Virus record (IMG/VR): IMGVR_UViG_3300028840_000655
Location: 1-63,957 of that record
Reading direction: 5' to 3' (one strand)
Source of the DNA: a virus
Lineage: Duplodnaviria > Caudoviricetes
DNA length: 63,957 nucleotides
In this document: positions 11,302 through 35,945 of the stretch, one piece after another
Layout: each line of letters opens with the position of its first letter
Numbering within the stretch: the first letter of the stretch is position 1
The notes under the pieces: model-generated
What the model was told of the DNA's origin: nothing
Database searches by the model: none
Seen by the model: the letters and a program-made list of their open reading frames with translations, nothing else
Made by a program: the position numbers and the translations under genes

Positions 11302-14300
11302 ATGACGGACGCATACGACATCACATGGGCGGCAGGCTCGACCGTTGGCGGGCGGCGGAAGAACAAGTGGGACGCGACGGTCGCTCCGACTGCCGCAGAC
11401 GACTCGGCGGACGGCTTCGAGATTGGCTCCCTGTGGGTCGACGTCAACAACGACGACGTCTACATGTGCGTCAACGACACAGCGGCGGCGGCGGTCTGGC
11501 GTCATCTGAACGCGGGCGTCTCTGACCACGGCGGATTGACGGGACTCGGCGACGACGACCATCCGCAGTACATCAAGGACTCGGAGTTCACGGCGACCGG
11601 CGATGTCCTCGTCGGGACCGGGGCGGGGACGTTCGTCGCGCGCCAGAACAACGACAACGCATCGACGGCTCCGACCGCATCCGACGACAACACGGCGGGC
11701 TACGCCATCGGTTCTCGTTGGCTCGACACGACGAACGACAAGGAATACGTCGCGACCGACGTCTCGACCGGCGCGGCTACGTGGGTCGACCTGACGACCG
11801 GGGCGGGCGGCGGCGCTCCCACGGACGCCGATTACCTCGTGGGCACGGCGAACGGCTCCCTGTCGGCAGAGATTGTGGTCGGCACCACTCCCGGAGGGGA
11901 ACTCGGCGGGACATGGGCTTCCCCCACGGTCGACAGCGTCCACTCAGGCAGCGCTCACCACTCGCAGAGCCACGTTCTCGACGGAGGGGACCACACGGTA
12001 TCCGGACTGACGCCGGGGCACGTCCTGACGGCTCTGACGGCGTCGACGTTCGGCTTCGCAGCGGCTCCGGCGGGAACCCCGGCTTCGACGGTCACGGACG
12101 AGACGACCTTCGGCATCTCCCCGGCGGTCGGCACGGACTCAGAGTACGCGCGGCAGGACCACACGCACGGCTCTCCCACGAACCCCGTAACGGCCCATGA
12201 GGCGGCGGGAGACCCGCATCCGGGGTATCTGACGCCTGCGGAGGGGAACGCGGCGTACGAGCCGTTGGGCGCGGTCTCGACGCACGAGGGACTGTCCGAC
12301 CCGCACACGGGCTATCGGTTGGAGAGCGCGGACCACTCGCACGCATCGACGGGACTCGAAGGCGGACTCGTTTCGCATGACGTCCTGACGAACGTCTCGG
12401 CGGACGACCATCACAACCAAGCGCACGCGTTCGACGGCGCGGACCACACGGGCTTGACCATCACGTCCCTCGCGACGGGAGACTTGCTCCGGTACAGCGG
12501 GACGGCATGGGTCAACTATCCGGACTCGAACTACGCGGCGAGCGGTCACACGCACGCCTACGCGCCAGACGACGCGGACTATCTCGTCGGCACGGCGAAC
12601 GGCGGGTTGTCGGCGGAGATTGTCGTCGGCACGGCACCGGGCGGCGAACTCGGCGGCACATGGGCGAGTCCAACGGTCGACACGACGCACGCAGGCTCGG
12701 CGCACCACAGCGAGTCTCACGTCGTCAACTCCACGGGTCCACACGCGGAGAGCGGTCTGACCATCGGTCACGTCCTCCGGGCGTCGGCGGCGGACGCGTT
12801 CTCGTTCGCGGCGTTGCAGGCGTCGGACATTCCGGCGCTCGACTACGCGCCATCCGACGTCGACTATCTCGTGGGGACCGCGTCAGGCGGTCTCTCCGCT
12901 GAGATTGTGGTCGGAACGGCACCGGGGGGCGAACTGGGAGGAACGTGGGCGTCTCCGACCGTTGACAGCGTCCACAGCGGAAGCGCGCATCACGCGCAGA
13001 GCCACGTCCTCGCGACAGGCACGGCGCTCGGACCGGACCACACAATCAGCGGCGCGGCGGCGGGCGAAGTCCTCCGGGCGCTGTCGGCGACGACGGCAGC
13101 GTTCGACGTCCTGCAACATGGCGACCTTGGCGGCGTCGGCACGGACGACCATCACAGCCAGAGCCACGACCACAGCGCAGCGGGCGACGGGACGACGCTC
13201 TCCCCGGCGACGCTCAACCTCCCGTCGACCACGACTCCCGCGCAGACGACGGAGGGTCAGGTCGTATGGGACAGCGACGGCGACTTCCTGACGGTCGGCG
13301 ACGGCACAGGGCGCAAGGACTTCGGGTATCTCGGCACGACGAACCCGGTCACACAGAACTACTCTGACGCAGCGGCTCCGGGTTCCTCCGTCGAAGTCGC
13401 GCGCATCGACCACGTCCACGGGATGCCAGCGGCAGGAAGCGGCGCACCCGATGACGCGGATTATCTGGTCGGCACGTCCAATGCGGGCTTGTCCGCAGAG
13501 ATTGTCGTTGGGACAACCCCCGGCGGCGAACTCGGCGGGACTTGGGCGTCGCCGACCGTTGACTCGGTCCACTCCGGTTCGGCGCACCACGCGCAGAGCC
13601 ACGACCACAGCAGCGCGTCGGACGGAAGCACGCTCGACCCGGCTATCCTGCTCTTGCCACCCGGACCGTTGCTCACGAGCGGCACGAACGGTCAGTTGCT
13701 CAACGACGGGACCGGCGTCCTGACGTTGGCAGACGGCAGTCTCTCAGGCGGCTACAAGCACTATCCGTTCCTGAACAGCACGCCTAGCACGCAAGCGTTC
13801 GGCGACAGCGCGGACGCGGGCACGCCAGCGACAGCGGGCTTCGCGAGTGCGGACCACAAGCACGCGTTCCCCGCGCAGTCAGCCATCGACCACGGGTCCA
13901 TCACGGGACTCGGCGACGACGACCACACGCAGTACCTTCTCGTGTCCGGCACGCGCGCCATGTCGGGCAATCTCGACGTCGGCGGCAACAGCATCATCTC
14001 GTCCTCCGGCTTCCCGGCTCTCGGCGAATGGGGACTCGACGCCGGTCACGGTTGGTCGGTCTACGCGTCCTACATCTCGCAGCAGTTCGGCTCGGCGGCT
14101 CCGGCGGTCGGTCCGTACATGGACGCGTACCGCTACGGGGCGAGCGGCGTGGTCGCTCCGAGCGATGCTCGCATCTGGCAAGTCGAAGGCTACGTGTACG
14201 ACGGCACGTCCAGCCTCGACACGGCGACCATCATCTTCCGCGTGGACGGAGCCATCGCGACGGATGACGCTCCGACCGACATCATCTTCGCGACCGGCAT

Positions 14301-17300
14301 CGGCGTCGGCGGCGCAGGCGGCGACGGATGGGACGAGCGTTGGCGCATCGCCAGCGATGGCGACCTCGAACCGATGTCAGACAGCGCGTACGACATCGGG
14401 ACGTCGGCAATCAGGGTCGCGACGGGCTACGCGGACATCTGGGATGGCGCACAGGTTCACACGCCGCACCTGACGCAAGTCGTCGTATCAGACACGCTCT
14501 TCCCGCTCTTCGAGGCGCGCAGCGCGGACGCTGGACCGGGCGCGAAGGACGACAACGACGTTCTCTTCCGCCACGACATCTACGGTCACGACGGGACGGG
14601 TTACATCATCGGCGCGCAGATGACGGCGCGCGTCGACGGCACGGTCGGCACGAACGTCATGCCGTCCGAGATGGTCTTCGGCATCAACACAGGCGGCGCG
14701 GCTATCTCGGAAGAGGTCACGTTCCGTCCAGACTCGACCGGATGGGCCGATGCGACCATCGCTCCGGGCGTCAACTACGGCGTCTCGCTCGGCGATGCGA
14801 CGCATCAATGGGGACAGGCGTGGCTCTACGAGGGTCAAATCGGGGAACTCTACGTTTCCGCTATCTCGGAGTTCCGGTCCAACCTCGATGTCTACAAGCA
14901 AGCCGACTTCGGCACCGGGGCGTTGCAGTTCTACCGGGCACGAGACAACGCGGGCAGCGAAGAACTCGTGCAGAACAACGACACCCTCGCGTCCATCTAC
15001 ATGGCGGGATACGACGGCGACCAGTATCTCGGCGCAGCCGAAATCAGGGCCGACGTCGACGGCACGGCGGCGGACAACGTCATGTACGGCGAACTCATCT
15101 TCTCGACGAACAACGGCGGGACAGCAGCGACCGACCGTTGGCGCATCTCGGCGGCGGGCAACCTCGAACCGATGCTGGCGTTCACGACGGTCGGGGCGTG
15201 GGACGAGCCGGTCGGGGACTTCTATGCGGAATACACATATACCCTGCGCTCGGCGTTCGGCGCGAGCATCGAGTATTACCAGACGGCGGACAACGTCGAC
15301 AACGACTTTCTCGGCTTCCTGTCGATGCACGGGCAGACGACGGGCGGCGGCTTCTCGCAGGGCGCGCTCATCTTCACCCGCGTCGACGGAACGGTGTCGG
15401 CTGGCGTCCTGCCGACCGAAATCGTCTTCTCGAACAATCTCGGTTCCGGGACGAGCGCGACGAACATCTGGCGGTTCGCTCCATCTGGCGCGTTCGAGCC
15501 GATGGCGGACTCGCTTTACAACATCGGCACGGCGAGCGTCCGTCCGGCGACCATCTACGCGGACAACCTCAACTCGGCAGGTGACATCACAATCGGCGCG
15601 GACGTTATCACCGAAGCCGAATGGACCGACCTGACGGACGGCGGCGAGACGACGTTGCACACGCATCCGGGCGGGGGCAGCGGCGCTCCGGTCGGAGCGG
15701 ACTATCTCGTGGGGACAGCAGACGGCACCCTGACGAACGAGATTGTCGTGGGCACGTCTCCCGGCGGAGAACTTGGCGGGACGTGGGCATCTCCGACCAT
15801 CGACACGACGCACAGCGGTTCATCTCACGCGAACATTCCGACGCAGACGGGCGCGCTCAACATGGGCACGAACGACATCACCGGAGTCGGCGACATCACG
15901 ATGGTCGGCGACATCGACGGCGAGGGCTTCGGTCCGTACTTCCACCATCCGACGACACGCGTCGGCATCACGCTCGAACGAGAGTCGACCGTCGTCGCAG
16001 ACGGCGAGGTCGGCAACTTGCTCTTCTACGGCAACGGCTGGCCGATGGGAGCCATCCGGGGCTACGCTCGTGTCAACGCTCCGGCGTCCGGCGACTCTCC
16101 CGGCGCGCTCGTGTTCGAGACCACGCCGGACGGCTCGTCGACGTCGGTCCAGCGCTGGCAGATTGACCATACCGGCGCTTGGCTTCCCATCACCGACTCG
16201 ACCGTCGACATCGGGTCATCTTCGGTCAGGGTCGCGACGGGCTACTTCGACAACCTGAACTCCGCTGGCGACATCACCATCGGCGCGCAGACCATCTCGG
16301 CGGCGGATTGGCTCGACCTGACGGACGGCGGGGCGACGACGCTCCACTCGCACGCGGGCGGCGGCGGCGCTCCGACGACGGTCGACTATCTCGTCGGCAC
16401 AGCGGACGGGACGCTCTCGAACGAGATTGTCGTGGGCACGACGCCGAACGGCGAACTCGGCGGGACGTGGGGAGCCATCACGGTCGACGCGACGCATTCC
16501 GGTTCGTCTCACGCGGCGCTCCCGACGCAGACGGCGACGCTCGACATGGGCGGCAACGACATCATCTCGGACGGCGTCACCGCTGGCGCTCTCGGCGAGT
16601 GGGGCACGGACACAGGCCATTCGTGGGCTGTCTACGCGTCATACATCTCCATGCAGGGCAACTATGCGGCACCGGGCGTCTCGCCTTACATGGACTCGTA
16701 CCGCTACGGGACCGCTGGCGCGACGGTCGCGGACGACTACTTCCTGTGGCAAGTCGAGAACTACGGATACGACGGGACGTCCAGCATCGACGGCGCAACC
16801 ATCTTCTCGCGCATCGACGGAACGGTCTCGACGGGCGTTCTCCCGACCGAGATTGTGTTCGGGACGAGCCTGACGAACGGATGGGTCGAGCGCTGGCGTA
16901 TCTCCCCGGCGGGCGACTTCGCTCCGATAACGGCTGGCGCACCCGGCGCAGGCTACGCCGTGGGCGAGTGGGCGTTGCCGGTCCGGGACGTCTACGTCGG
17001 CGACTTCATCGCGCTCAGGGCGGAGCGAGATACCGGGCCGAACAACATCGAGTTCTATCGTGGTCGAGCGAGCGGGACCATCGTCGCGGACGACGACATC
17101 CTCGGCTACATCGGGTTCTACGCCAACGACGGCGCAGAAGGCGGCGTCATGGGGGCGCGCATCGCGGCAGTCGTCGACGAGGCGACCCCGGCGAACGATG
17201 ACGTCCCGACCGAACTCGTCTTCTCGACGACCAACGCAGGCACGGTCCCGACCGACCGTTGGCGCATCTCCCCGGCAGGGGCGCTCTCTCCCATCGCGGA

Positions 17301-19314
17301 CTCGACGTACGACATCGGCGAGTCGTCCTTCGCGGGCAACAAGCACGTCAACGCGCTCTACGTCGACACCATCTATGTGACGGACATCACGAAGGATGCA
17401 ATCAACGGGGCGGTCGACTCAATCACGGTCAACACGCTCTCGTCGTCGTCGTCCTCGTTCATCGACATCCTGTCGGCAAGCGGCATCTACTTCGGGACGA
17501 ACGGCGTCGGCACCACGTACAACTACGAGTTCCTTGGCGGCAACGCGGACATGCGGGGTCCGTCCGGGTCGGAACTGTCGCTCTACCGCGACGACCCGAC
17601 GACGCTCGACACGAACCAACTCGGAGCCATCTACTTCGGCGGATGGGACACGGGTTCGACGGAACGCCGGACGGCGAGCATCCGGGCGAACGCGGCGCAG
17701 GACTTCGGTCTCAACACGAACCTCGGAACCGAACTGACGTTCGCGGTCACGCTGACAGGCGGCAACACGCCTACGGACGTGTGGCAAATCGAGGCGGACG
17801 GCGACCTCATGCCGTTGCTCAACGCCACGTACGACATCGGCTCGTTCTCGCAGAAGCCAGCGGCGGTCTACGGCGTCCTCGGTTCGTTCACGAGCCTCGA
17901 TGTCTACGAGACGGGCGGAGGGACAGCGGGCTTCGACTTCGGTCGAACGGACCTGACGACCGACGCAGAGACGCTTGCAATCATCAACTTCCGTGGCTCA
18001 GACGACGGTTCTGGGGTACAGGTCGGCGCGACCATGTACGCGCGGGCGACGGAGGACTGGACGTCGACGGCGCACGGCACGTCTATCTCGTTCCAAACGA
18101 CGCCGAACGGCGGGACGTCGCAGTTCACACGCTGGCGCATCGACCAGAACGGCGCGCTCTGGCCGTTCACCGACTCGCTCTATGACATCGGGCTGTCGAC
18201 CAACCGGGTCAACCAAATCTACACGGACGGCATCGACACGGGCGGCAACATCGTCCCGGAGACGGCGGGCGGTCCGAGCATCGGCGCGTGGACTAACGAG
18301 TTCAACACGTTCTACTCGAACTACCACGAACTCGCGGTCCGCGACAACGTCTCGTTCCCGCAAGAGAAGTTGAACCGGACGCGCGCGTCATCCGCCATCG
18401 TGCAGGACGGCGATTGGCTCGGTCGCATCCTGTTCACCGGGCGGGACACGACGACGCAGCGCGACGCGGCAGCCATCCGGGCGGCGGTCGACGGGACACC
18501 GGGCGCGTCGGACATGCCGGGAGAACTCGTCTTCTCGACGACGCCGGACGGCTCCGCGACGTTGACCGACCGATGGCGCATCTCGGCGCAGGGTCACTTG
18601 GAGTCGGCGACGGCGGCGAACTACGGCATCTACGGCAAGCCGCCGAACGTCGTCACCTACACGTCGGGGTCTGGCAACTGGACGAAGCCGACCAACCCGA
18701 CACCGACCTACATCGTGGTCGAAGTTCAGGGCGGCGGAGGCGGCGGCGGAGGGTCGCAGGCGACGTCGACGAGCGAGGCCGGGTCCGGCGGCGGCGGCGG
18801 CGGCGGCGGGTACGCGCGCAAGGTGTACTCGGCATCCGACCTGTCCGGGGCGTCATCCTTCGCGTACGCTGTCGGTTCCGGCGGCGGCGGCGGCTCAGGC
18901 AACACCAACGGGTCGGACGGCAGCGCATCGACTTTCACCGTTGGCGGGACGGCGTTGACGGGCAGCGGCGGCGGCGGCGGGACTGCCGGGGCAGCCGGGG
19001 TAGGGTTCACCATCGACAGCGGCGGCGGCAGCGGTGCAGCATCTAACGGCGACGTCAACATCGGCGGCGGTCCCGGTCACAACGGCATCCGCGTGTCGCT
19101 TCCCGGCGTCTCGGCGGCGACCGCAATCCAAGGTCACGGCGGCGACTCACAGTTGGGCGGCGGCGGGCGGCGCGACCCGACCGGCGGCGGCTTCGGTGGC
19201 TCAGGCTACGGCTCCGGTGGCGCGGGCGGTTGGGGCAACCAGAGCAGCGCAGCGACCGATGGCGGAGACGGCAAGGACGGCATCGTCATCATCACGGAGT
19301 TCTACGGTCCATGA
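11302..19314 (+). CDS. Giant repetitive tail fibre / receptor-binding protein (2670 aa)
   Basis: Several internal repeat families and a C-terminal Gly-rich domain; follows the hub gene. Confidence 0.85.
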   Translation: MTDAYDITWAAGSTVGGRRKNKWDATVAPTAADDSADGFEIGSLWVDVNNDDVYMCVNDTAAAAVWRHLNAGVSDHGGLTGLGDDDHPQYIKDSEFTATGDVLVGTGAGTFVARQNNDNASTAPTASDDNTAGYAIGSRWLDTTNDKEYVATDVSTGAATWVDLTTGAGGGAPTDADYLVGTANGSLSAEIVVGTTPGGELGGTWASPTVDSVHSGSAHHSQSHVLDGGDHTVSGLTPGHVLTALTASTFGFAAAPAGTPASTVTDETTFGISPAVGTDSEYARQDHTHGSPTNPVTAHEAAGDPHPGYLTPAEGNAAYEPLGAVSTHEGLSDPHTGYRLESADHSHASTGLEGGLVSHDVLTNVSADDHHNQAHAFDGADHTGLTITSLATGDLLRYSGTAWVNYPDSNYAASGHTHAYAPDDADYLVGTANGGLSAEIVVGTAPGGELGGTWASPTVDTTHAGSAHHSESHVVNSTGPHAESGLTIGHVLRASAADAFSFAALQASDIPALDYAPSDVDYLVGTASGGLSAEIVVGTAPGGELGGTWASPTVDSVHSGSAHHAQSHVLATGTALGPDHTISGAAAGEVLRALSATTAAFDVLQHGDLGGVGTDDHHSQSHDHSAAGDGTTLSPATLNLPSTTTPAQTTEGQVVWDSDGDFLTVGDGTGRKDFGYLGTTNPVTQNYSDAAAPGSSVEVARIDHVHGMPAAGSGAPDDADYLVGTSNAGLSAEIVVGTTPGGELGGTWASPTVDSVHSGSAHHAQSHDHSSASDGSTLDPAILLLPPGPLLTSGTNGQLLNDGTGVLTLADGSLSGGYKHYPFLNSTPSTQAFGDSADAGTPATAGFASADHKHAFPAQSAIDHGSITGLGDDDHTQYLLVSGTRAMSGNLDVGGNSIISSSGFPALGEWGLDAGHGWSVYASYISQQFGSAAPAVGPYMDAYRYGASGVVAPSDARIWQVEGYVYDGTSSLDTATIIFRVDGAIATDDAPTDIIFATGIGVGGAGGDGWDERWRIASDGDLEPMSDSAYDIGTSAIRVATGYADIWDGAQVHTPHLTQVVVSDTLFPLFEARSADAGPGAKDDNDVLFRHDIYGHDGTGYIIGAQMTARVDGTVGTNVMPSEMVFGINTGGAAISEEVTFRPDSTGWADATIAPGVNYGVSLGDATHQWGQAWLYEGQIGELYVSAISEFRSNLDVYKQADFGTGALQFYRARDNAGSEELVQNNDTLASIYMAGYDGDQYLGAAEIRADVDGTAADNVMYGELIFSTNNGGTAATDRWRISAAGNLEPMLAFTTVGAWDEPVGDFYAEYTYTLRSAFGASIEYYQTADNVDNDFLGFLSMHGQTTGGGFSQGALIFTRVDGTVSAGVLPTEIVFSNNLGSGTSATNIWRFAPSGAFEPMADSLYNIGTASVRPATIYADNLNSAGDITIGADVITEAEWTDLTDGGETTLHTHPGGGSGAPVGADYLVGTADGTLTNEIVVGTSPGGELGGTWASPTIDTTHSGSSHANIPTQTGALNMGTNDITGVGDITMVGDIDGEGFGPYFHHPTTRVGITLERESTVVADGEVGNLLFYGNGWPMGAIRGYARVNAPASGDSPGALVFETTPDGSSTSVQRWQIDHTGAWLPITDSTVDIGSSSVRVATGYFDNLNSAGDITIGAQTISAADWLDLTDGGATTLHSHAGGGGAPTTVDYLVGTADGTLSNEIVVGTTPNGELGGTWGAITVDATHSGSSHAALPTQTATLDMGGNDIISDGVTAGALGEWGTDTGHSWAVYASYISMQGNYAAPGVSPYMDSYRYGTAGATVADDYFLWQVENYGYDGTSSIDGATIFSRIDGTVSTGVLPTEIVFGTSLTNGWVERWRISPAGDFAPITAGAPGAGYAVGEWALPVRDVYVGDFIALRAERDTGPNNIEFYRGRASGTIVADDDILGYIGFYANDGAEGGVMGARIAAVVDEATPANDDVPTELVFSTTNAGTVPTDRWRISPAGALSPIADSTYDIGESSFAGNKHVNALYVDTIYVTDITKDAINGAVDSITVNTLSSSSSSFIDILSASGIYFGTNGVGTTYNYEFLGGNADMRGPSGSELSLYRDDPTTLDTNQLGAIYFGGWDTGSTERRTASIRANAAQDFGLNTNLGTELTFAVTLTGGNTPTDVWQIEADGDLMPLLNATYDIGSFSQKPAAVYGVLGSFTSLDVYETGGGTAGFDFGRTDLTTDAETLAIINFRGSDDGSGVQVGATMYARATEDWTSTAHGTSISFQTTPNGGTSQFTRWRIDQNGALWPFTDSLYDIGLSTNRVNQIYTDGIDTGGNIVPETAGGPSIGAWTNEFNTFYSNYHELAVRDNVSFPQEKLNRTRASSAIVQDGDWLGRILFTGRDTTTQRDAAAIRAAVDGTPGASDMPGELVFSTTPDGSATLTDRWRISAQGHLESATAANYGIYGKPPNVVTYTSGSGNWTKPTNPTPTYIVVEVQGGGGGGGGSQATSTSEAGSGGGGGGGGYARKVYSASDLSGASSFAYAVGSGGGGGSGNTNGSDGSASTFTVGGTALTGSGGGGGTAGAAGVGFTIDSGGGSGAASNGDVNIGGGPGHNGIRVSLPGVSAATAIQGHGGDSQLGGGGRRDPTGGGFGGSGYGSGGAGGWGNQSSAATDGGDGKDGIVIITEFYGP

Positions 19315-20292: not shown

Positions 20293-20667
20293 CTACGCGG
20301 TCGAGCGCTTCAAGCGCGCGATGCTGGCGGCGCGGGCTTCGTCGTCCATCTCTTCCCAACGTCGACGGGCGGCTTCGCCACGGGCACGCCGGACGAGGCT
20401 CGCTCGCTGGCGATACATCGCGGACGTGACCTTCGGCGGGAGCAGGACTCGCGTCGAGCCGTCCGCGCTTACCGTCTGGACGAGCGCGTAGTTCCCGGCG
20501 TCTGCCCAACCGACCTTCGAGTCGATGGTGAATGTCTGGACGACATGGGTCACGGTCATCAACCCGTCGTTCGTCGTGACGGTCGACGGGCGGCTCTTGC
20601 GAACCCCCGGCAACCCGTCAATCTCGGCGAGCCATCGGTCGATGACGTCCATGCGGTCTTCTCTCAT
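20293..20667 (-). CDS. Hypothetical protein
   Basis: Variant start motif ACGCACGGAGACC upstream. Confidence 0.7.
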   Translation of the reverse strand: MREDRMDVIDRWLAEIDGLPGVRKSRPSTVTTNDGLMTVTHVVQTFTIDSKVGWADAGNYALVQTVSADGSTRVLLPPKVTSAMYRQRASLVRRARGEAARRRWEEMDDEARAASIARLKRSTA

Positions 20668-20787
20668 GTGGGTCTCCGTGCGTGCTATGGGTTCGGGGGA
20701 GACGTCCGTAGGTGTGTTCGGGATGTCTCCCCTCGCGGAGCGGCAACCGTGCTAGGTGACTACCGCTCCGGTCCTTCTATCGTGGGG

Positions 20788-21156
20788 CTACCGATAGGCG
20801 ACCTCCGTCCTGCGGGTCCGGCGAGTGTACCGGCGGGGGGAGCGGCGGACCGGCTCGAAGCGGTCCCCGCGTGCGAAGTAGGCGTTGTCGACGAAGATGT
20901 CGACCATCTCGTCGATGGCGGCGTCTTCCATCGCGTCGAAGGCGAGGTCGGCGGCGAGGCCGACGTTGTTCGGGCGCATCTCGCGGAGCAGGCTTTCGAG
21001 GGCGGCGGCGGCGAAGATGCTCTCACCGTCGAACCACTCGTTGCGGACCTGAACCTCGTTCCAACGCTCGTTCTCTTCGGGCGTCAGGGTCGGGACGGTC
21101 TCGCTCAGGTAGGCGATTGCGTCCGCGTAGTCCTTGGCGATTGCGTCGTTGTTCAT
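20788..21156 (-). CDS. Hypothetical protein
   Basis: Start motif 21162-21173 and its own cassette promoter. Confidence 0.8.
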   Translation of the reverse strand: MNNDAIAKDYADAIAYLSETVPTLTPEENERWNEVQVRNEWFDGESIFAAAALESLLREMRPNNVGLAADLAFDAMEDAAIDEMVDIFVDNAYFARGDRFEPVRRSPRRYTRRTRRTEVAYR

Positions 21157-21193
21157 TCGTGGTCTCCGTTCGTGTGTCTGATTGACTGACGTC

Positions 21194-21242
21194 AGGATAG
21201 CCTACGCTGGCGTAGATGTCAACTACACCTAACCGCTCAATC
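21194..21242 (-). promoter_or_regulatory. Cassette promoter TTGACA-17-TATCCT, operator 21202-21215, upstream element 21223-21242
   Basis: Read directly from sequence. Confidence 0.8.
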
Positions 21243-23941: not shown

Positions 23942-24214
23942 CTAGCCGATGGTCTGCCGACCGGAGCCGATGCAGTTCGCGACCTTGACGGCGGCGAGTT
24001 CACCGTTCTCCGGAGCGTCCGCGTAGAACGCTTCGCGGGTGTAGGCGACGACGAAAGCGTCCTTGCTCCCTGCCTTCGCGACGAAGTCGTTGACGGTCCA
24101 CTCGACCGGGTCGAGGTCGATGTCGTGGTTGTGGTCGAACTTGCGCGTGTGGGCGCAACCCGGCTTGTGCAGTTCGTTCTGGCCGAAGTTCGAGTTTGCG
24201 ACGGTCGTCTTCAT
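23942..24214 (-). CDS. Hypothetical protein
   Basis: Start motif 24219-24230. Confidence 0.75.
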   Translation of the reverse strand: MKTTVANSNFGQNELHKPGCAHTRKFDHNHDIDLDPVEWTVNDFVAKAGSKDAFVVAYTREAFYADAPENGELAAVKVANCIGSGRQTIG

Positions 24215-24244
24215 CGGGGTCTCCGTTCGTGGGGGACGGTCGCC

Positions 24245-24454
24245 CTAGCGGGCGACGACGTCCGGATGCGAGATTGCCATTGCCGCGCGGTCGCGGGAGA
24301 TGGGGAGCCAGCGCTGCGCGCGACCCCAGTAGTGGAACTTGACCGTGTTGTTCGGGTAGATGGAGCGGCGGATGACGACCGGGGCGACGAAGCCGTCAGG
24401 CTTGCAGTTCTCGAAGGCTTCGGTGTAGACGGTGTTCGGTCGGCGGTCGGTCAT
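24245..24454 (-). CDS. Hypothetical protein
   Basis: Start motif 24462-24473. Confidence 0.75.
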   Translation of the reverse strand: MTDRRPNTVYTEAFENCKPDGFVAPVVIRRSIYPNNTVKFHYWGRAQRWLPISRDRAAMAISHPDVVAR

Positions 24455-24490
24455 CTGTCGTGTCTCCGTTCGTGATTGGTTGATGACCGT

Positions 24491-24554
24491 AGGTTACTAC
24501 GTGAGCGTAGACGGCGTCAAGGGGTAATCGAGGCGAAGTGGTGACAGGTGTCAA
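24491..24554 (-). promoter_or_regulatory. Cassette promoter TTGACG-18-TAACCT, operator 24497-24510, CRP/FNR-like box 24541-24554
   Basis: Read directly from sequence. Confidence 0.8.
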
Positions 24555-25201
24555 CGTCGGGTCCGGTTGCAGCGTGTCCCGGCGAAGAACCTTGCGTTCA
24601 CCCCGACGAGGGTTGGAACCCCGCCATCGAGTGCGACTCCACGCGTTCTGCTCGACAGGTTCTTGCTCCGGGGACGCCGGGGCGGGGCGGTTGGTCGGAC
24701 TCCCGAATACGGCTTGCGCCATCGGCTCCGGGTCCGACCTCATCGCGGTCCTGCTACCTGTGGGGGGTCTCCGCTGCCAATCGGGGCGGATGCGTTCCCA
24801 CGTCGCGGTGTCCGCGATGCTGTCTGGAAGAGAACCCCCGCCGAGAGCCGACTTCCTGTCGTCTTCGGTCCCTAATCAGCAATGCCCTTCGTCCGAACCG
24901 AGCCGGTAGTTCTGTCGATGCTGGCGACTCTCTGACCCGATGCCGGGGGAGCGGTCGTCGCTTGCCTTGCGACTTGCGGTCTCCCGTCTGTCGAGTTTCG
25001 AGTCGGCGTCTCCGTCGAACCCCTGCGGCTTCCTTGTTTGCTCGTCCCTTGCGGCGGCGAGTAGTGACTACTCCGGGGCACCCTCCCGGTCGTCCCTAGT
25101 TTCGACGTCGCTCACGTTGGCGGCGTGTCCGTAGTTCGACTCCCGGCGGGGGGTCTCTTCCGTCTGCTGGTCCGCGCTTTCGGCGCTCGCCGTTCTCTGT
25201 T
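24545..25201 (-). ncRNA. Candidate large structured non-coding RNA (~650 nt)
   Basis: Own promoter; no credible ORF; 26-bp long-range helix with G.U pairs valid only on the minus strand; several GNRA-capped hairpins. Both ends are estimates. Confidence 0.75.
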
Positions 25202-25207
25202 GCACGT

Positions 25208-25267
25208 AGTATGCGCCTACTCTGGCGTAGACGTCAACCCCCTCTAACTACACCAATCCGCTCAATC
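25208..25267 (-). promoter_or_regulatory. Promoter of the ncRNA: TTGACG-18-CATACT, operator 25217-25230, upstream element 25248-25267
   Basis: Read directly from sequence. Confidence 0.75.
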
Positions 25268-25542
25268 TCACGAGGGGGGTCGTCGAAGTCGTCGAACTTG
25301 AGCGAGATGGTCGCTTGCATCCGGACCGGACCTTCGTGTCGCATCATGCGCGCGTAGATGCGCGCGCCGATGAACGTCTCGAACGTGTCGAACAACCCGG
25401 TCAGGGCTTCGGACGAGAACGAGATGCCTTCGGCGCTCTCGATGCCTGCGACGCGCGGGTCGACGTCGCGGACGATGGAGAACGTCATCGCATCGTGGTC
25501 CCCGGCGGCGAGTTCGTCGAAGAGGTCGCGGTCAGACGACAT
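25234..25542 (-). CDS. Hypothetical protein (MSSDRDLF...)
   Basis: GGAGG RBS; phage-like codon usage. Confidence 0.65.
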   Translation of the reverse strand: MSSDRDLFDELAAGDHDAMTFSIVRDVDPRVAGIESAEGISFSSEALTGLFDTFETFIGARIYARMMRHEGPVRMQATISLKFDDFDDPPREIERIGVVRGG

Positions 25543-25822
25543 CGGGTCTTCCTCCGTCCTTGTCGGCGTACTGCCATTGCAGGGTCTCCGGGAGCGTGTC
25601 CGTCCCCGCCATCGCTTCTTGTACGCCGGAGAGCGAGGCGAAGTGGATGTCGTCTTGTCCGTCGAAGCGGACGCGCCTGACGACGAGACCACGACGCCAC
25701 AGGGACTCGACGGTCTCTGGCGTGCAGCCGATGGCGGCGACGAGTTGTCGTTCCGTGCGCGCGGGCACGTACGCGAGGAACCGGATGAGGCGGCGGTCCT
25801 GTTCGGTCAGGTCGTACTTCAT
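25532..25822 (-). CDS. Small winged-helix-like DNA-binding protein (MKYDLTEQD...)
   Basis: LTEQDRRLIRFL...TERQLVAAIGC...LWRRGLV pattern. Confidence 0.55.
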   Translation of the reverse strand: MKYDLTEQDRRLIRFLAYVPARTERQLVAAIGCTPETVESLWRRGLVVRRVRFDGQDDIHFASLSGVQEAMAGTDTLPETLQWQYADKDGGRPDVV

Positions 25823-25957: not shown

Positions 25958-26137
25958 TCACTCATCGCTCGCCACGCGGACGCGTCGGGCTTCGTCGTAC
26001 CGGCGGAGTTCGGCGGGCTGGACGAACCAGTCGCGTCCGCGCTTCGTGGCCTTCAACTTGCCCTTGTGGACTTGCTGTCGCAGCGTCGCGGGGTTCACCC
26101 CCAACTTCGCGGCGGCTTCACTCAGGGTCAGCGGCAT
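25958..26137 (-). CDS. HTH (excisionase/MerR-like, HTH_17) DNA-binding protein
   Basis: LTLSEAAAKLGVNPATLRQQVHKGKLKATKRGRDWFV. Confidence 0.85.
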   Translation of the reverse strand: MPLTLSEAAAKLGVNPATLRQQVHKGKLKATKRGRDWFVQPAELRRYDEARRVRVASDE

Positions 26138-26393
26138 CGCTCTCTCCGTTCTTGAGGTAGCCGAGCCGGAGGTCTTCGAGCCGGTCCTGCGCCATGCGGA
26201 AGCGTCGGGCTTCCATCCGCAGTTGGTCGACAGCCGTCCGGAGGGCGGGGGACAGGGCGCGGTTCGCATCGCGCGCCGGATTGGTCTCGTCGTTGAGCAG
26301 CGTGTCCGCTGCCGCGTCGAGTGTCACGCTCTCGGCGTGTAGGGCGGTCTCCGCCATGCGGAGCGCTTCGTCCGTGGATGGTCGGTTGCTCAT
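26118..26393 (-). CDS. Hypothetical protein
   Basis: Coupled ORF. Confidence 0.65.
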   Translation of the reverse strand: MSNRPSTDEALRMAETALHAESVTLDAAADTLLNDETNPARDANRALSPALRTAVDQLRMEARRFRMAQDRLEDLRLGYLKNGESDAADPE

Positions 26394-27000: not shown

Positions 27001-27155
27001 CGGGGGTCTCCCTTCGTGATGCGCTCCGCCTTCGCTTCGGCGGACCGCTGGTTGACGATGCTCTGGATGAGCAGCGCGCGCTTGTTGTTGACCTTCATGC
27101 CGTAGCGCTTGTTCTGGCGCTTGCGGTCTCGTGTGTCAGCGTGTCGGTCGGTCAT
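26997..27155 (-). CDS. Small basic hypothetical protein (MTDRHADT...)
   Basis: Start motif 27162-27173. Confidence 0.65.
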   Translation of the reverse strand: MTDRHADTRDRKRQNKRYGMKVNNKRALLIQSIVNQRSAEAKAERITKGDPR

Positions 27156-27188
27156 CGTTTGGTCTCCGTTCGTGGTGGCGATATGGGA

Positions 27189-27251
27189 ACCATACGCTAG
27201 CGTAGACATGGCGTCAAGACCTAATCCGTGGTACTTGTTGCGGCAAGGCAC
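27189..27251 (-). promoter_or_regulatory. Cassette promoter TTGACG-17-TATGGT, operator 27192-27205, CRP/FNR-like box 27238-27251
   Basis: Read directly from sequence. Confidence 0.8.
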
Positions 27252-27375
27252 CATGACCGTCGTGCTACCATGCGTTCCACGCGCCGCAGCCGGGGTCGGT
27301 GCGCCGCGACATCCGGAGTCGAGAAACCGTCCGGGCGCGCAACCCGGAACCCCGGCGATAACACGGAGGGAACTC

Positions 27376-27678
27376 GTGCCAGAACGCATCCCGGTCGCCG
27401 TGACGACCCCCAACCCGCAGGGCGGCACGGTCACGCAGACCGTCTCATTCCAAGGCATCCCGCAGGCGAACGACATCATCCGCGTCGGTCAGCGGACGTG
27501 GATGGTCGCGCGCGTCAACTGGACGCCGGTCCGCGAGCCGTGGGAGATTGGCGTCGAACTCGTCCTGTCTCCGCTCGACGCTCCGCAGCCGCAGCCGCAG
27601 CCGCAGCCACACGCGCATGAAGAGGACGAGGCTCCGACCACGCGCAAGACGCGGCGGAAGACAGCGAAGGCGAACTAG
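27376..27678 (+). CDS. Hypothetical protein with PQ repeat
   Basis: GGAGGG RBS before GTG at 27376. Confidence 0.65.
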   Translation: MPERIPVAVTTPNPQGGTVTQTVSFQGIPQANDIIRVGQRTWMVARVNWTPVREPWEIGVELVLSPLDAPQPQPQPQPHAHEEDEAPTTRKTRRKTAKAN

Positions 27679-29268: not shown

Positions 29269-29437
29269 ATGTCGCGCGATTGGGCGGATTGGTGTAGTTG
29301 ACACGTTCTTGACAGCCGTGCTAATGTGCATGGCACAAGGCAGCGCGGACCGCCAAGCGAACTCCCCGCAAGGGGACAGCAGAAGGGTCCGGGGGACTAA
29401 CCTCCGGACTCCCCGCACAGCACGAAGGGAGACCAGA

Positions 29438-30490
29438 ATGACGGTCATCTCACCCGAACGAGTCGCAGTCGCGCAGACTGAGGACCGTTCCCTCCCGTGG
29501 ATTGGTCACGGCGAGAACATCACTCAGGTCGACGGTCTCATGACCGCACAGGAAGTCATCGACGCAGCCGGTCTCGGCTGGACGACCCGCAAGGTCTCGC
29601 TCATGACGCAGGAACACGTCCCGGTCCCCGGCAAGTTCGCCGTGGTCCGCGAGGACAACGGGTTCCCGCTCGGCGTGGTCGGCGAGAAGTACGTCGAGGT
29701 TTGGAACGAGGACGCCTTCGACTTCGCGAACGGCATCGTCGCCAGCGACGGCAACCAGTTCGTCGCAGGCGGACAGGTCGACGACGGTCGTCAGGTCTTC
29801 CTCGTCATCGACCTCGGCGCGGTCGAGCCAATCACCATCGAGGGCGACCCCGGCTTCAAGACGTACCTCATCATCCGGACGTCGCACGACGGCTCGTGCG
29901 CGCTGTCGGGCATGGTGACGCCGGTCCGTCTCCGCTGCCGGAACATGCTCAACCTCGCCATCTCGCAGGCAATCAGCCGGTTCAGCATCCGGCACAGCGG
30001 CAACATCGAGAGCAAGATGACCGCTGCTCGCAACGCTCTCGGCATCTCGGTCGACTACATGCGCCGGTTCGAGATTGTCGCCAACTCCCTCATCGACACG
30101 AAGGTCTCGGACGACCGCGCAGAAGCCATCTTCCGCGACGCCTTCTCGATGAAGGACTCCATCGAAGAGAAGGGCGAAGACTCCGACCGCTACGTCAACC
30201 ACGCAGCGACGCGGACCTTCGACCGCTACATCGACGCTCCCGACCTCGCGCACATCCGGGGCACCGGCTGGGGCGTGGTCAACGCGGTCGCCGAGTTCAT
30301 CGACCACGACCGCACCTACGGCAAGGGCGCGGACCGCAACGCTCTCGACGTCAAGACCACGTCGGTCCTGTGGGGTCAGGGCGCGAACATCCTCAATCGC
30401 ACTCTCGCTCTCGTCGACCCGGTACTCGCCGACCGGCGGGTCGCGCGGCAGGCGGACAAGTTCCGCAACCGCGTCGAGGTCGTCGCCTAG
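29438..30490 (+). CDS. DUF932 / TIGR03299-like phage-plasmid protein
   Basis: PW.G.G, AGLGW, LGVVG..Y, SHDGS, TPVR..C.N.L, IRHSG and GT.WG.VNAV.E..DH motifs. Confidence 0.9.
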   Translation: MTVISPERVAVAQTEDRSLPWIGHGENITQVDGLMTAQEVIDAAGLGWTTRKVSLMTQEHVPVPGKFAVVREDNGFPLGVVGEKYVEVWNEDAFDFANGIVASDGNQFVAGGQVDDGRQVFLVIDLGAVEPITIEGDPGFKTYLIIRTSHDGSCALSGMVTPVRLRCRNMLNLAISQAISRFSIRHSGNIESKMTAARNALGISVDYMRRFEIVANSLIDTKVSDDRAEAIFRDAFSMKDSIEEKGEDSDRYVNHAATRTFDRYIDAPDLAHIRGTGWGVVNAVAEFIDHDRTYGKGADRNALDVKTTSVLWGQGANILNRTLALVDPVLADRRVARQADKFRNRVEVVA

Positions 30491-31857: not shown

Positions 31858-32120
31858 ACGCGCTCAACACGCGCCAGCGGGCGCACGACTGGCGAACGGC
31901 GGACATCACGTCCGCCATCGCGGAAGAGGCGCAGGAGCGCGCCAGCGAGCCGGAGGGGCATTCCTTCCTCGTCCTGACCGACGACGACGCAGTCGCTCGC
32001 GAGGTCGCTCCGCTCATGGCGCAGCGGCTCTACCCGGACCGCTCGTTCGGCGAGGTCATCCACAGCGAGCCGGTCACGTACGACGGTCCTGCCATCGAGG
32101 TCGTTCTGCGGGTTCGTTGA
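31854..32120 (+). CDS. Hypothetical protein (MNALNTRQ...)
   Basis: ATGA coupling. Confidence 0.65.
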   Translation: MNALNTRQRAHDWRTADITSAIAEEAQERASEPEGHSFLVLTDDDAVAREVAPLMAQRLYPDRSFGEVIHSEPVTYDGPAIEVVLRVR

Positions 32121-32213
32121 CAGCAGTCACCATTCCGCGTCGATTGGGGGTTGACGCTAGCGTAGACGATGCGCTACGATGACATCGTCATCAAGACACA
32201 CACGAACGGAGAC
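32117..32213 (+). promoter_or_regulatory. Cassette: box 32117-32130, TTGACG-18-TACGAT, operator 32152-32165, start motif 32202-32213
   Basis: Read directly from sequence. Confidence 0.85.
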
Positions 32214-34035: not shown

Positions 34036-34947
34036 ATGACACTCGACCGCTCGACCTACATCGGGTCATCTGACGCGGCGCGTATCGCCGGACTCTCGCC
34101 GTGGGGTTCCCCGCTCTCCGTGTGGATGGAGAAGACGGGGTTCATCGAGCCGAAAGACGAGACGCTTCGCATGTGGCTCGGCTCGAAACTCGAACCTATC
34201 CTGCTCGAACTCTTCGAGCAGAAGACCGGCAAGTCCCCGGCGCGCTATCCGCAGGACGCTCCCCCGATACTCCATCCGAAGTACCCGTTCATCGGTTGCC
34301 ATCCGGACGCCGACTACCTCGAACTCAAGACCACGGAGTTCGCTCGCGATTGGGGCGAGGACGGCTCCGTCGTCACGCTCGACGCGATGACGATACCGCT
34401 CCACTACTTCATCCAGACGCAGCACATCATGGCGTGCATGGAGTGGCCGACCATCGACGTCGCGGTCCTCATCGGGCACAAGGACTTCCGCCGGTACGAG
34501 GTTCCCGCGAACCCGACCGTCATCGACCAACTCATCCGCACCGAAGTCGCGTTCTGGACCGACCACGTCGAGACCGGCGTGGCACCGGAGCAGGACGACA
34601 TCGAGAGCCGGAAGGCGTATCTCCGCAAGCGCTTCCCCGCTCCCATCGCCGACATGCGCGCGGCGACCCCCGAAGACCTACAAGCGCTCGAAGAGTGGCG
34701 TCTGGCGAAGGCCGAACTCAAGTCGGCAGAGCAGCGCGCCGAACAGGCAGCGAACCGCATCAAGTCCCGCATCGGAGACAACGCGGGCATCATCGGCGAG
34801 GCGACATGGACGACGACCCGGCGCAAGGGTCTCGACATGACCGCTCTCCGTGAGCAGATGACGGCGGCAGGCATGGGGTTCATCCTCGATGCTTGCTCGA
34901 CCGAGACCGAATACCGCACGCTCCGAGACAAGGGAGGGAAGCGTTGA
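34036..34947 (+). CDS. YqaJ-like viral recombination exonuclease
   Basis: IGSSDAA..AG.SPW.SP..VW.EKTG, PD...ELKT and Y..Q.QH motifs; adjacent to RecT. Confidence 0.92.
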   Translation: MTLDRSTYIGSSDAARIAGLSPWGSPLSVWMEKTGFIEPKDETLRMWLGSKLEPILLELFEQKTGKSPARYPQDAPPILHPKYPFIGCHPDADYLELKTTEFARDWGEDGSVVTLDAMTIPLHYFIQTQHIMACMEWPTIDVAVLIGHKDFRRYEVPANPTVIDQLIRTEVAFWTDHVETGVAPEQDDIESRKAYLRKRFPAPIADMRAATPEDLQALEEWRLAKAELKSAEQRAEQAANRIKSRIGDNAGIIGEATWTTTRRKGLDMTALREQMTAAGMGFILDACSTETEYRTLRDKGGKR

Positions 34948-35945
34948 GCAAGTCGTCAGCCGTCGTCAAGCGGGAGCAAGACCCGAAGGCGGCATACGCC
35001 AACATCGAGGGGCTGGTCTGGCAACGGCAGGAAGCCATCGTCAAGACGCTCCCGTCGACCATCGAGCCGGAACAGTTCATCAACGTCGCTTTGCAAGCCG
35101 TCACGCGGACGCCGAAGTTGCTCGCCTGCTCTCCGGCTTCCATCGTCAAGGCTCTCCGCGACGCGGCGGAAGTCGGACTCGTTCCGTCCGGTCTCATGGG
35201 CAGCGCGTATCTGGTCCCGTATTGGAACTCAGGCGCGGGCACGTACGAGGCTCAGTTCCAAGCGGGCTACCGTGGACTCATCGACCTCGCGCGTCGCTCC
35301 GGCGAAGTGCGGCTCATCGAAGCGCATGTCGTCCGTGAGCGCGACGACTTCGCGTTCGCCTACGGGACCGAAGGGTTCATCCGCCACGTCCCCTACATCA
35401 ACCTGACCAACGAGAAGGACGGCGAGGGCGTGTTGCTCGACGGCGGCGACTACGTCGCGGCATACGCTCGTGCGGTCCTGACGTCCGGCGAAGAGCAGTT
35501 CGAGGTCATGTCGCGGGCGGAGGTCGAGGCTATCCGCAAGCGCTCGAAGGCAGCGGACTCCGGTCCGTGGATGACCGACTACGCCGAGATGATGCGGAAG
35601 ACTCCGACCCGGAAGTTGCTCAAGTACCTCCCCCTGTCCGCGTCCGCGCTCACACGCGCGCTCGAAATCGAAGACGCGGCGGAGTCGCACGCGTCACGCG
35701 TGCCACAGAAGGCGCAGACGGTCTCTTCGCAGGCTCGCCATCAACTCGCGGCGTCTCTCGGCGTCTCAGACGAGCCACAAGCCACGGAGAGCGACGCTAG
35801 CGTAGAAGACGATGCAGAAGCCATCCCGTTGCCGGTCGAGGCGCAGGGGACGTTCTGTGGCGTCGTGACCGACACCGGGACGTGCATCAAGTCTCCGGGG
35901 CATGAGGGCGACCACACGGCTCCCGAAGCGGCACCGTTCGCGTGA
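34944..35945 (+). CDS. recT: RecT-family single-strand annealing protein
   Basis: PKLLACS..S, AYLVPY, GYRGLIDLARRSG, GPW..DY.EM..KT...LLKYLPLS. Confidence 0.95.
   Translation: MSKSSAVVKREQDPKAAYANIEGLVWQRQEAIVKTLPSTIEPEQFINVALQAVTRTPKLLACSPASIVKALRDAAEVGLVPSGLMGSAYLVPYWNSGAGTYEAQFQAGYRGLIDLARRSGEVRLIEAHVVRERDDFAFAYGTEGFIRHVPYINLTNEKDGEGVLLDGGDYVAAYARAVLTSGEEQFEVMSRAEVEAIRKRSKAADSGPWMTDYAEMMRKTPTRKLLKYLPLSASALTRALEIEDAAESHASRVPQKAQTVSSQARHQLAASLGVSDEPQATESDASVEDDAEAIPLPVEAQGTFCGVVTDTGTCIKSPGHEGDHTAPEAAPFA

Follow-up and report, generated by a model that had tools for sequence, protein, structure and literature searches.

A probable structured RNA gene of about 590 nt behind an operator-bearing promoter of an uncultured high-GC phage

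What occupies the longest stretch without gene-like signal in a phage genome, when an operator-bearing promoter points directly into it? This question is raised by IMG/VR virus record IMGVR_UViG_3300028840_000655, a complete genome of 63,957 bp (65% G+C, direct terminal repeats of 144 bp), which was analyzed over its full length and is called the window here. A first-pass annotation had proposed that positions 24545-25201 encode a large non-coding RNA of ~650 nt on the minus strand. Our analysis makes it likely that positions 25201-24612 (minus strand) are a functional structured RNA gene made from the promoter at 25208-25237. On the best reading, the RNA belongs to no catalogued family and represents a new family of large early phage non-coding RNAs. 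The promoter and its operator are kept in a related phage contig, the sequence is present in two RNA libraries and the region is non-coding. In addition, the comparison of relatives indicates selection for RNA-type base pairing, with compensatory change in at least two helical domains.

The gap is the longest run of low coding signal in the genome, as had been claimed. It covers 24346-25395, or 1050 nt by the extents of the scanning windows, while the second longest run reaches 855 nt (150-nt scanning windows in which the best codon-position GC class stays below 0.83). In a local frame plot, no gene-like GC content at the third codon position (GC3) is seen from ~24460 to 25240, and both neighboring genes have third-position values of 0.85-0.93. 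The promoter that opens the gap belongs to a family of near-identical promoters in this genome, in which GGGGGTTGACG is followed by a palindromic operator and then by the -10 element. Most members continue with the start motif ACGAACGGAGAC and an ATG. The operator regulon comprises ~11 promoters. The predicted TTGACG-18-CATACT promoter with the phage operator was recovered at 25237-25208. It is the sole exact match among the six found at up to two mismatches, it is the only promoter-like site in 24000-25600 (shuffles expect 0.1), and the operator half-palindrome CTACGCCAGAGTAG lies at 25230-25217, inside its spacer. Unlike its siblings, it is followed neither by ACGAACGGAGAC nor by an ATG, in line with the earlier statement that a ribosome binding site and open reading frame (ORF) are missing here.

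A scan of metagenome contigs for the promoter and start-motif signature of this phage gave ten loci, of which two are true relatives (L013 and L021) and eight are unrelated. L013 is a contig of 7,903 bp that is syntenic with window positions 32350-24690 and ends at 24690. Promoter, operator and RNA body are all retained in L013, where the promoter reads TTGACA-18-TAATGT and the operator is a perfect CTACGC..GCGTAG palindrome. This conservation makes co-regulation with the other operator-bearing promoters plausible, and the suggested link to the early accessory genes can be retained in that form. Within the RNA body, 342 of the first 400 alignment columns and 223 of 250 columns in the central part are identical between the window and L013. 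The blastn segment that runs from the end of the upstream gene through the candidate RNA is 79.3% identical, and the segments in protein genes are 67.6-76.0% identical; the DUF932 protein reaches 78% at the amino-acid level. The alignment contains indels of 3, 1, 1, 1, 6 and 2 nt.

A long-range helix closes a core of the RNA. Its two arms (26 nt each, 88% complementary as DNA; Table 1) rank first among the 114 inverted-repeat pairs of the genome. In the minus-strand RNA they form 23 Watson-Crick pairs, two G.U pairs and one C.U mismatch, exactly as the first-pass annotation described, and the helix is present in every minimum free energy (MFE) fold. L013 carries nine substitutions in the arms (5 + 4), all of which keep or improve pairing. 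Four pairs are changed on both sides with Watson-Crick pairing kept (G-C to A-U, A-U to G-C, and C-G to U-A twice), the C.U mismatch of the window becomes A-U and both G.U pairs are kept, so that 26 of 26 positions pair in L013. We calculate a probability of ~4e-6 (5/14950 x (1/3)^4) that changes fall in these places and are complementary by chance. A second copy of GAGACCCCCC at 24754-24771 was also considered as a partner of the 3' arm; this pairing shows no covariation in L013.

The second domain, directly downstream of this helix, differs far more in sequence. In alignment columns 401-500, 26 of the first 50 and 32 of the next 50 columns are identical (~55%). Both the outer 8-bp stem and the inner stems differ between the phages and are complementary in each of them. 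A divergent segment between conserved ones is better explained by a structured RNA than by one recent exchange event. In the adjacent hairpin capped by GGC-GCAA-GCC, which was correctly predicted, one G-C to C-G swap is found in L013 (columns 489/513) and the lower stem is weaker there. If the MFE fold of the window alone is taken as the model for the core, five of the five doubly changed pairs stay paired. An RNAalifold consensus counts 14 double changes, 100% paired, but this count is inflated because the alignment that it scores also gave rise to the structure. Between the window and L013, most helices of the core do not vary. The long helix and the second domain are thus solid, while many of the small core helices are not.

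Could the conserved complementarity belong to the DNA rather than to an RNA? In that case, the region would be an origin or primer-RNA region or a recombination site, with arms kept complementary by gene conversion or by single-strand folding. The compensatory changes do fit either strand, and the genome, which encodes RecT and YqaJ and no recognisable DNA polymerase among the scanned proteins, needs an origin somewhere. However, both G.U (G.T in DNA) positions are kept in both relatives, where conversion would erase them. Covariation in the second domain affects short helices of a kind typical of RNA, and a conserved promoter is directed into the element. Neither iterons nor tandem repeats nor an AT-rich stretch were found in the region, and genes for a tyrosine or serine integrase or a reverse transcriptase are absent from the genome. 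Taken together, a DNA-level element is very unlikely. The G.U pairs had been put forward as an argument for RNA and for the minus strand at once. RNA-type pairing stands through the covariation; the strand does not follow from it, as the plus strand yields pair counts that are just as good. Three features assign the RNA to the minus strand, namely the promoter, the retention of both G.U pairs and a folding z-score that is slightly better on that strand.

A protein-coding origin of the stretch was weighed against the same alignment. On this account, the region is a decaying or unusual coding stretch or a functionless spacer, its identity to L013 stems from recent recombination and the helix is incidental. 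One minus-strand frame indeed has only two stops over ~840 nt, and a 45-codon ORF at 25205-25068 is called as a gene by pipelines and has a gene-like position-specific GC content of 0.70/0.50/0.83. Mosaic exchange also occurs elsewhere in these phages: the second true relative, L021 (2,400 bp), is 96% identical over 140 nt (20545-20684) beside a segment of 74% identity (region 20545-21223), a clear pattern of mosaic exchange. The indels of 1, 1, 1 and 2 nt relative to L013, however, disrupt every candidate ORF. L013 shares the first ~24 residues of the 45-codon ORF and then shifts frame to a different, shorter end; the start codon of this ORF lies at or before the predicted transcription start, and a search of 5.8 billion protein clusters finds only the ORF itself. 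A 69-codon ORF with a GTG start is present in both phages, and the reading frames differ after ~10 codons. No protein relatives were found for a 183-codon ORF on the plus strand. The low stop count of the minus-strand frame is explained by the composition of the RNA strand, which contains only 10.7% U, and in a third lineage (X9, below) the middle of this frame is shorter by 2 nt. With all nine substitutions of the helix arms compatible with pairing, no frame conserved in the relatives and no gene-like GC3, a coding or functionless stretch is the least probable of the explanations considered. A reading frame conserved in place of the base pairs had been named as what would overturn the proposal, and none was observed.

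Sequencing runs supply further relatives and the boundaries of the element. In a 31-mer index, 14 of the 16 listed runs, from 11 studies, hold some words of the region, and four runs (X3, X9, X4 and X7) were aligned to it. Contigs from both aligned metatranscriptome runs, which belong to two studies, cover the core. The X3 contig (237 nt) has no differences to 24870-25106. The X9 contig (271 nt) matches 24841-24911 and 24981-25111 with two differences each, and 67 other letters replace the 69 nt between these blocks, which marks a variable sub-domain at 24912-24980. Both contigs stop short of the flanking genes; as contigs, they cannot show absence. X4, a DNA run, carries L013-type sequence, with listed differences that coincide with those of L013. 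One of its contigs matches 24612-24739 with three substitutions and five gap letters and then diverges, beyond 24612, into a start motif and an ATG, with first codons unlike those of the window's gene at 24454. X7 yields only short matches of less than 90% identity in the upstream gene. Two further pieces look spurious, namely X9 at 25440-25477 (seven differences in 38 nt) and X4 at 24633-24667.

Because the X4 contig diverges at this point, the conserved element is placed by sequence comparison as ending near 24612, which gives the conserved unit of ~590 nt and replaces the original ~650 nt. In the window, the gene that follows (24454-24245, minus strand) is preceded by its own promoter and start motif. 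The following gene differs between the relatives, and the window has a regulator box and a full promoter inserted ahead of it; with different genes downstream, the unit behaves as a portable promoter-operator-RNA cassette. The box, TTGACACCTGTCACCA, occurs in identical copies at 903-918 and 24540-24555, with another site listed at 32117-32130. It sits at a fixed distance before promoters and in the window divides the RNA from the next promoter.

The new 3' limit also decides on several smaller predictions. The helix between 24572-24591 and 24658-24677 is only 71% complementary and straddles the breakpoint at 24612, as does the T-loop-like hairpin at 24605-24625, and neither can be kept as a conserved part. 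In place of the hairpin proposed at 24803-24817, the MFE folds of both phages have an 8-bp long-range stem of a larger domain. Overall, the gap, the promoter, the 26-bp helix and the GCAA hairpin of the first-pass annotation stand, and these three small elements and the extent of 650 nt do not.

Several observations weigh against a free, minus-strand structured RNA. The RNA-library contigs are unstranded and may include DNA, and they show presence of the sequence, not transcription. The only relative available as sequence is L013, which ends at 24690; the two further lineages are known through difference tables of short contigs. The covariation data accordingly consist of two aligned sequences, too few for a significance test of the R-scape type, and since L021 shows mosaicism among these phages, part of the high identity of L013 could be recent exchange. 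In the core, only two of the nine pairs changed on a single side stay paired in the MFE fold of the window, which makes many of the model's minor helices unreliable. For one predicted stem, the 5' strand is retained in X9 and the stretch that contains the 3' strand is replaced. Changed pairs are kept in 13 of 18 cases on the plus strand versus 7 of 14 on the minus strand. Folding does beat dinucleotide shuffles, with z-scores of -2.76 (minus) and -1.63 (plus) for the whole region of 663 nt (20 shuffles each) and of -3.12 (minus) and -2.68 (plus) for the core (100 shuffles each). The gain is modest and present on both strands, and folding energy alone therefore decides little. Finally, no terminator-like site was found on the minus strand in a scan of 24000-25600. 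Together with the gene directly after the element in the L013-type relative, this means that the RNA may be a leader or may be cut from a longer transcript.

The leader explanation deserves attention. It holds that the element acts in cis, either by making the polymerase resistant to terminators or by controlling stability or translation of the early genes that follow. The put RNAs of phage HK022 act in the former way: they are ~70 nt long, form two stem-loops and mediate processive antitermination. Like them, the candidate is a predicted structured RNA whose sequence directly follows an early promoter and would share a transcript with early genes, whereas it measures ~590 nt, shows cassette-like mobility and has no terminators known downstream. 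The position of the start motif and ATG in X4, directly after the element, speaks for a leader, as does the sibling promoter of the DUF932 gene, which also has a conserved structured leader of ~110 nt. This gene (29438-30490; PF06067, E 1e-45) is preceded by GCAA-capped hairpins (window 29298-29437, plus strand; L013 3675-3860, minus strand), and its leader is 85% identical to L013 by column, above the nucleotide identity of the gene itself. The motif AGCGCGGACC is common to the DUF932 leader and the 5' end of the candidate RNA. The regulator box and full promoter between the element and the next gene in the window, and the difference of the downstream gene between relatives, speak against a leader, and 590 nt with long invariant blocks far exceeds the size of known antitermination RNAs. 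On balance, we consider a cis-acting leader improbable.

If the region is an RNA gene in its own right, does it belong to a known class? With the covariance models of Rfam 15, no match at gathering thresholds is found in the whole window, so novelty is not refuted by this search. At E <= 10, the region and its sub-regions give only chance-level matches of 9.6-20.4 bits against thresholds of 40-93, to eukaryotic small nucleolar RNA, microRNA and long non-coding RNA models and to a few small bacterial motifs (D12-methyl, COG2908). GOLLD, ROOL, OLE, RNase P, transfer-messenger RNA (tmRNA), introns and ribozymes thus receive no support, nor does a resemblance to the RNase P P4 motif that was seen by eye. 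The earlier annotation left a choice between a divergent member of a class such as GOLLD or ROOL and a new class; because no Rfam 15 match exists, the new class is the better description, and the divergent GOLLD or ROOL has no covariance-model support. As a descriptive class, 'ornate' non-coding RNA denotes several hundred nt of conserved non-coding sequence, and this is what L013 and the X4-type contigs show over ~590 nt.

Other identities were examined by their hallmarks. A retron, group II intron or RNA of the diversity-generating retroelement type is rejected, as a reverse transcriptase (PF00078) is absent from the complete genome. The same holds for an attP or recombination site, given that tyrosine and serine recombinases (PF00589, PF00239) are absent and only an Xis-like HTH_17 protein is encoded at 25958-26269. 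A type III antitoxin RNA (ToxI-like, with tandem repeats of ~36 nt) is not indicated, since 24545-25207 contains no tandem repeat; the only tandem array in 24400-25300 is a 9-nt unit in two copies at 25279-25296, inside the upstream gene. Antisense action on the phage itself is not indicated either: apart from promoter and operator sequence held in common, the longest complementarity found between the RNA and the remaining genome does not exceed 16 nt.

Homologue searches were without result beyond the relatives described above. A blastn search of 24400-25300 against 50,697 phage records gives no match. No related locus was retrieved from IMG/VR with the upstream (102 amino acids) and downstream (69 amino acids) proteins as queries. 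The terminase query returned one locus at 24% identity, and two aligned DUF932 proteins returned one locus at 26%, in a record (G002) without the RNA or the terminase. An exact scan of IMG/VR for the 17-nt start motif hits one unrelated contig (G001), and three exact blocks of the RNA (27, 18 and 17 nt) have no matches there. A 20-nt RNA block has seven matches among genome contigs, all by chance (20-26 nt alike). The upstream protein finds only itself in a homologue search, and in an exact look-up of ten ORFs, records exist for two, namely the 45-codon ORF and the gene downstream of the RNA. This RNA is not described in the literature and catalogues searched; Fremin et al. 2023 (PMC10690425) screened IMG/VR for structured RNAs, and their supplementary lists, which lie outside that scope, might include it.

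Large uncatalogued structured RNAs in the early regions of phages are already known as a type. ROOL RNAs are associated with tRNA, and the phage studied here has no tRNA genes. GOLLD (RF01998) and ROOL (RF03087) resemble the candidate in that they reach at least 500 nt, are multi-domain and often encoded by phages or prophages, and commonly have GNRA-type loops, but neither matches the candidate RNA even at E <= 10. Both form RNA-only multimers according to cryo-electron microscopy (10.1101/2024.12.08.627333; PMC12286853). The closest likeness in genetic setting is found in Cluster A mycobacteriophages. The Pleft RNA of L5, D29 and StarStuff is a non-coding RNA of ~500 nt from a repressor-controlled early promoter, described as the most abundant phage RNA, stable, processed into smaller species and toxic to the host (PMC5712189), and a 2025 preprint reports it as essential for lytic growth (10.1101/2025.11.21.689395). 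In both cases, ~500 nt that lack a conserved ORF separate an operator-bearing early promoter of a high-GC phage from small early genes. Differences are equally apparent. The candidate RNA has an internal position, in contrast to the L5 RNA at the end of its genome, and ~90% of the L5 transcripts terminate at a defined place while no terminator is seen for the candidate. The two RNAs share no sequence similarity: blastn gives only chance matches of 8-13 nt, and L5 51140-51672 is not matched by an nhmmer profile built from the window and L013. As no sequence is shared, Pleft is an analogy, not a family to which the candidate belongs.

How might such an RNA work? Its synthesis should coincide with the switching on of the early and accessory promoters that bear the operator. 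From 5' to 3', the predicted layout comprises a small hairpin, a multi-branch core of ~285 nt closed by the 26-bp helix, a three-tier stem-loop, the GCAA-capped hairpin and a conserved tail (Table 1). The molecule could accumulate early in infection as a stable, U-poor RNA; low U content may protect an RNA from endonucleases that prefer AU. Covarying closing helices around invariant blocks of 40-56 nt are, as far as sequence patterns tell, the signature of RNAs with tertiary contacts or bound partners and not of antisense regulators, and it is probably by its tertiary structure, and not through antisense pairing, that the RNA would act in trans. A role as scaffold or decoy for a host or phage protein is possible, and we advance it tentatively and by analogy. 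Bolder and less likely still is the idea of a new class of large tertiary-structured RNAs that moves between high-GC environmental phages as a promoter-operator-RNA cassette, an 'RNA moron'. The three-dimensional form of such an RNA might serve an essential early function. It might, for example, form an assembly made of RNA only, as ROOL and GOLLD do, act as a ribozyme, or disarm a host RNA-binding defense or nuclease by serving as its decoy. The invariant 40-56-nt blocks between covarying helices have the look expected of such a molecule.

Table 1. Features of the candidate RNA locus and its surroundings, in window coordinates.
Feature	Position	Strand	Observation
Upstream promoter element	25248-25267	-	Repeat common to the promoters at 21222 (-) and 29298 (+); largely kept in L013
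Sigma-70-type promoter	25208-25237	-	-35 TTGACG 25237-25232, 18-nt spacer, -10 CATACT 25213-25208
Conserved body of the candidate non-coding RNA, ~590 nt	24612-25201	-	5' end predicted ~7 nt after the -10; 3' limit set by the divergence of a relative
Small 5' hairpin	25181-25192	-	Consensus fold, columns 16-27 invariant; followed by motif AGCGCGGACC at 25178-25169
5' arm of the 26-bp closing helix	25136-25161	-	Five substitutions in L013 (25160, 25159, 25153, 25150, 25149), all helix-compatible
Multi-branch core inside the long helix, ~285 nt	24852-25135	-	Invariant blocks of 40-56 nt; variable sub-domain 24912-24980; X3 and X9 contigs
3' arm of the 26-bp closing helix	24826-24851	-	Four substitutions in L013 (24838, 24837, 24828, 24827), each complementary to a 5'-arm change
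Second domain, three-tier stem-loop with 8-bp outer stem	24741-24819	-	Same architecture in separate MFE folds of the window and L013
Hairpin capped GGC-GCAA-GCC	24693-24739	-	MFE fold; apical part kept in L013
Conserved 3' tail	24612-24692	-	X4 contig: no listed difference in 24612-24688
Spacer particular to the window, outside the conserved RNA	24455-24611	-	TGACA..TGTCA box 24541-24554, next promoter (-35 at 24520), start motif, ATG

The phage itself is distant from the described ones. Its terminase, portal and DUF932 proteins have at most 35% identity to anything among the 50,697 GenBank phage records. Most of the best matches to the portal and DUF932 proteins come from phages of Actinobacteria, and those to the terminase come from uncultured, cyanobacterial and Pseudomonas phages. 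The genome contains no tRNA or tmRNA genes, and its recombination genes encode YqaJ (34036-34947) and RecT (34893-35945). What at first resembles a second gene-free gap is occupied by an ORF at 27109-27678 (plus strand), which has a Pro-Gln repeat, a basic tail and a reversed AT skew and lies inside an otherwise leftward early block. An ORF of 2,670 codons at 11302-19314 (plus strand) contains several internal repeat families of 50-190 nt, spaced 285-2,571 nt apart, and probably encodes a repeat-built tail fibre or host-recognition protein.

Large structured RNAs whose job is unknown are rare, and each new class so far has brought unexpected RNA biology, such as RNA-only cages. The present candidate offers a defined promoter, an operator, domain boundaries, at least three natural sequence lineages and presence in RNA libraries, and is therefore ready for in vitro transcription, chemical probing and cryo-electron microscopy. 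Even if it turns out to be ordinary, for instance a leader, the element still marks a conserved regulatory module. As a probable RNA gene, it would extend the pattern of L5 and D29, an early non-coding RNA under a repressor-controlled promoter, to uncultured phages. By analogy, this suggests that high-GC phages may follow an 'RNA first' mode of early expression as a general strategy.

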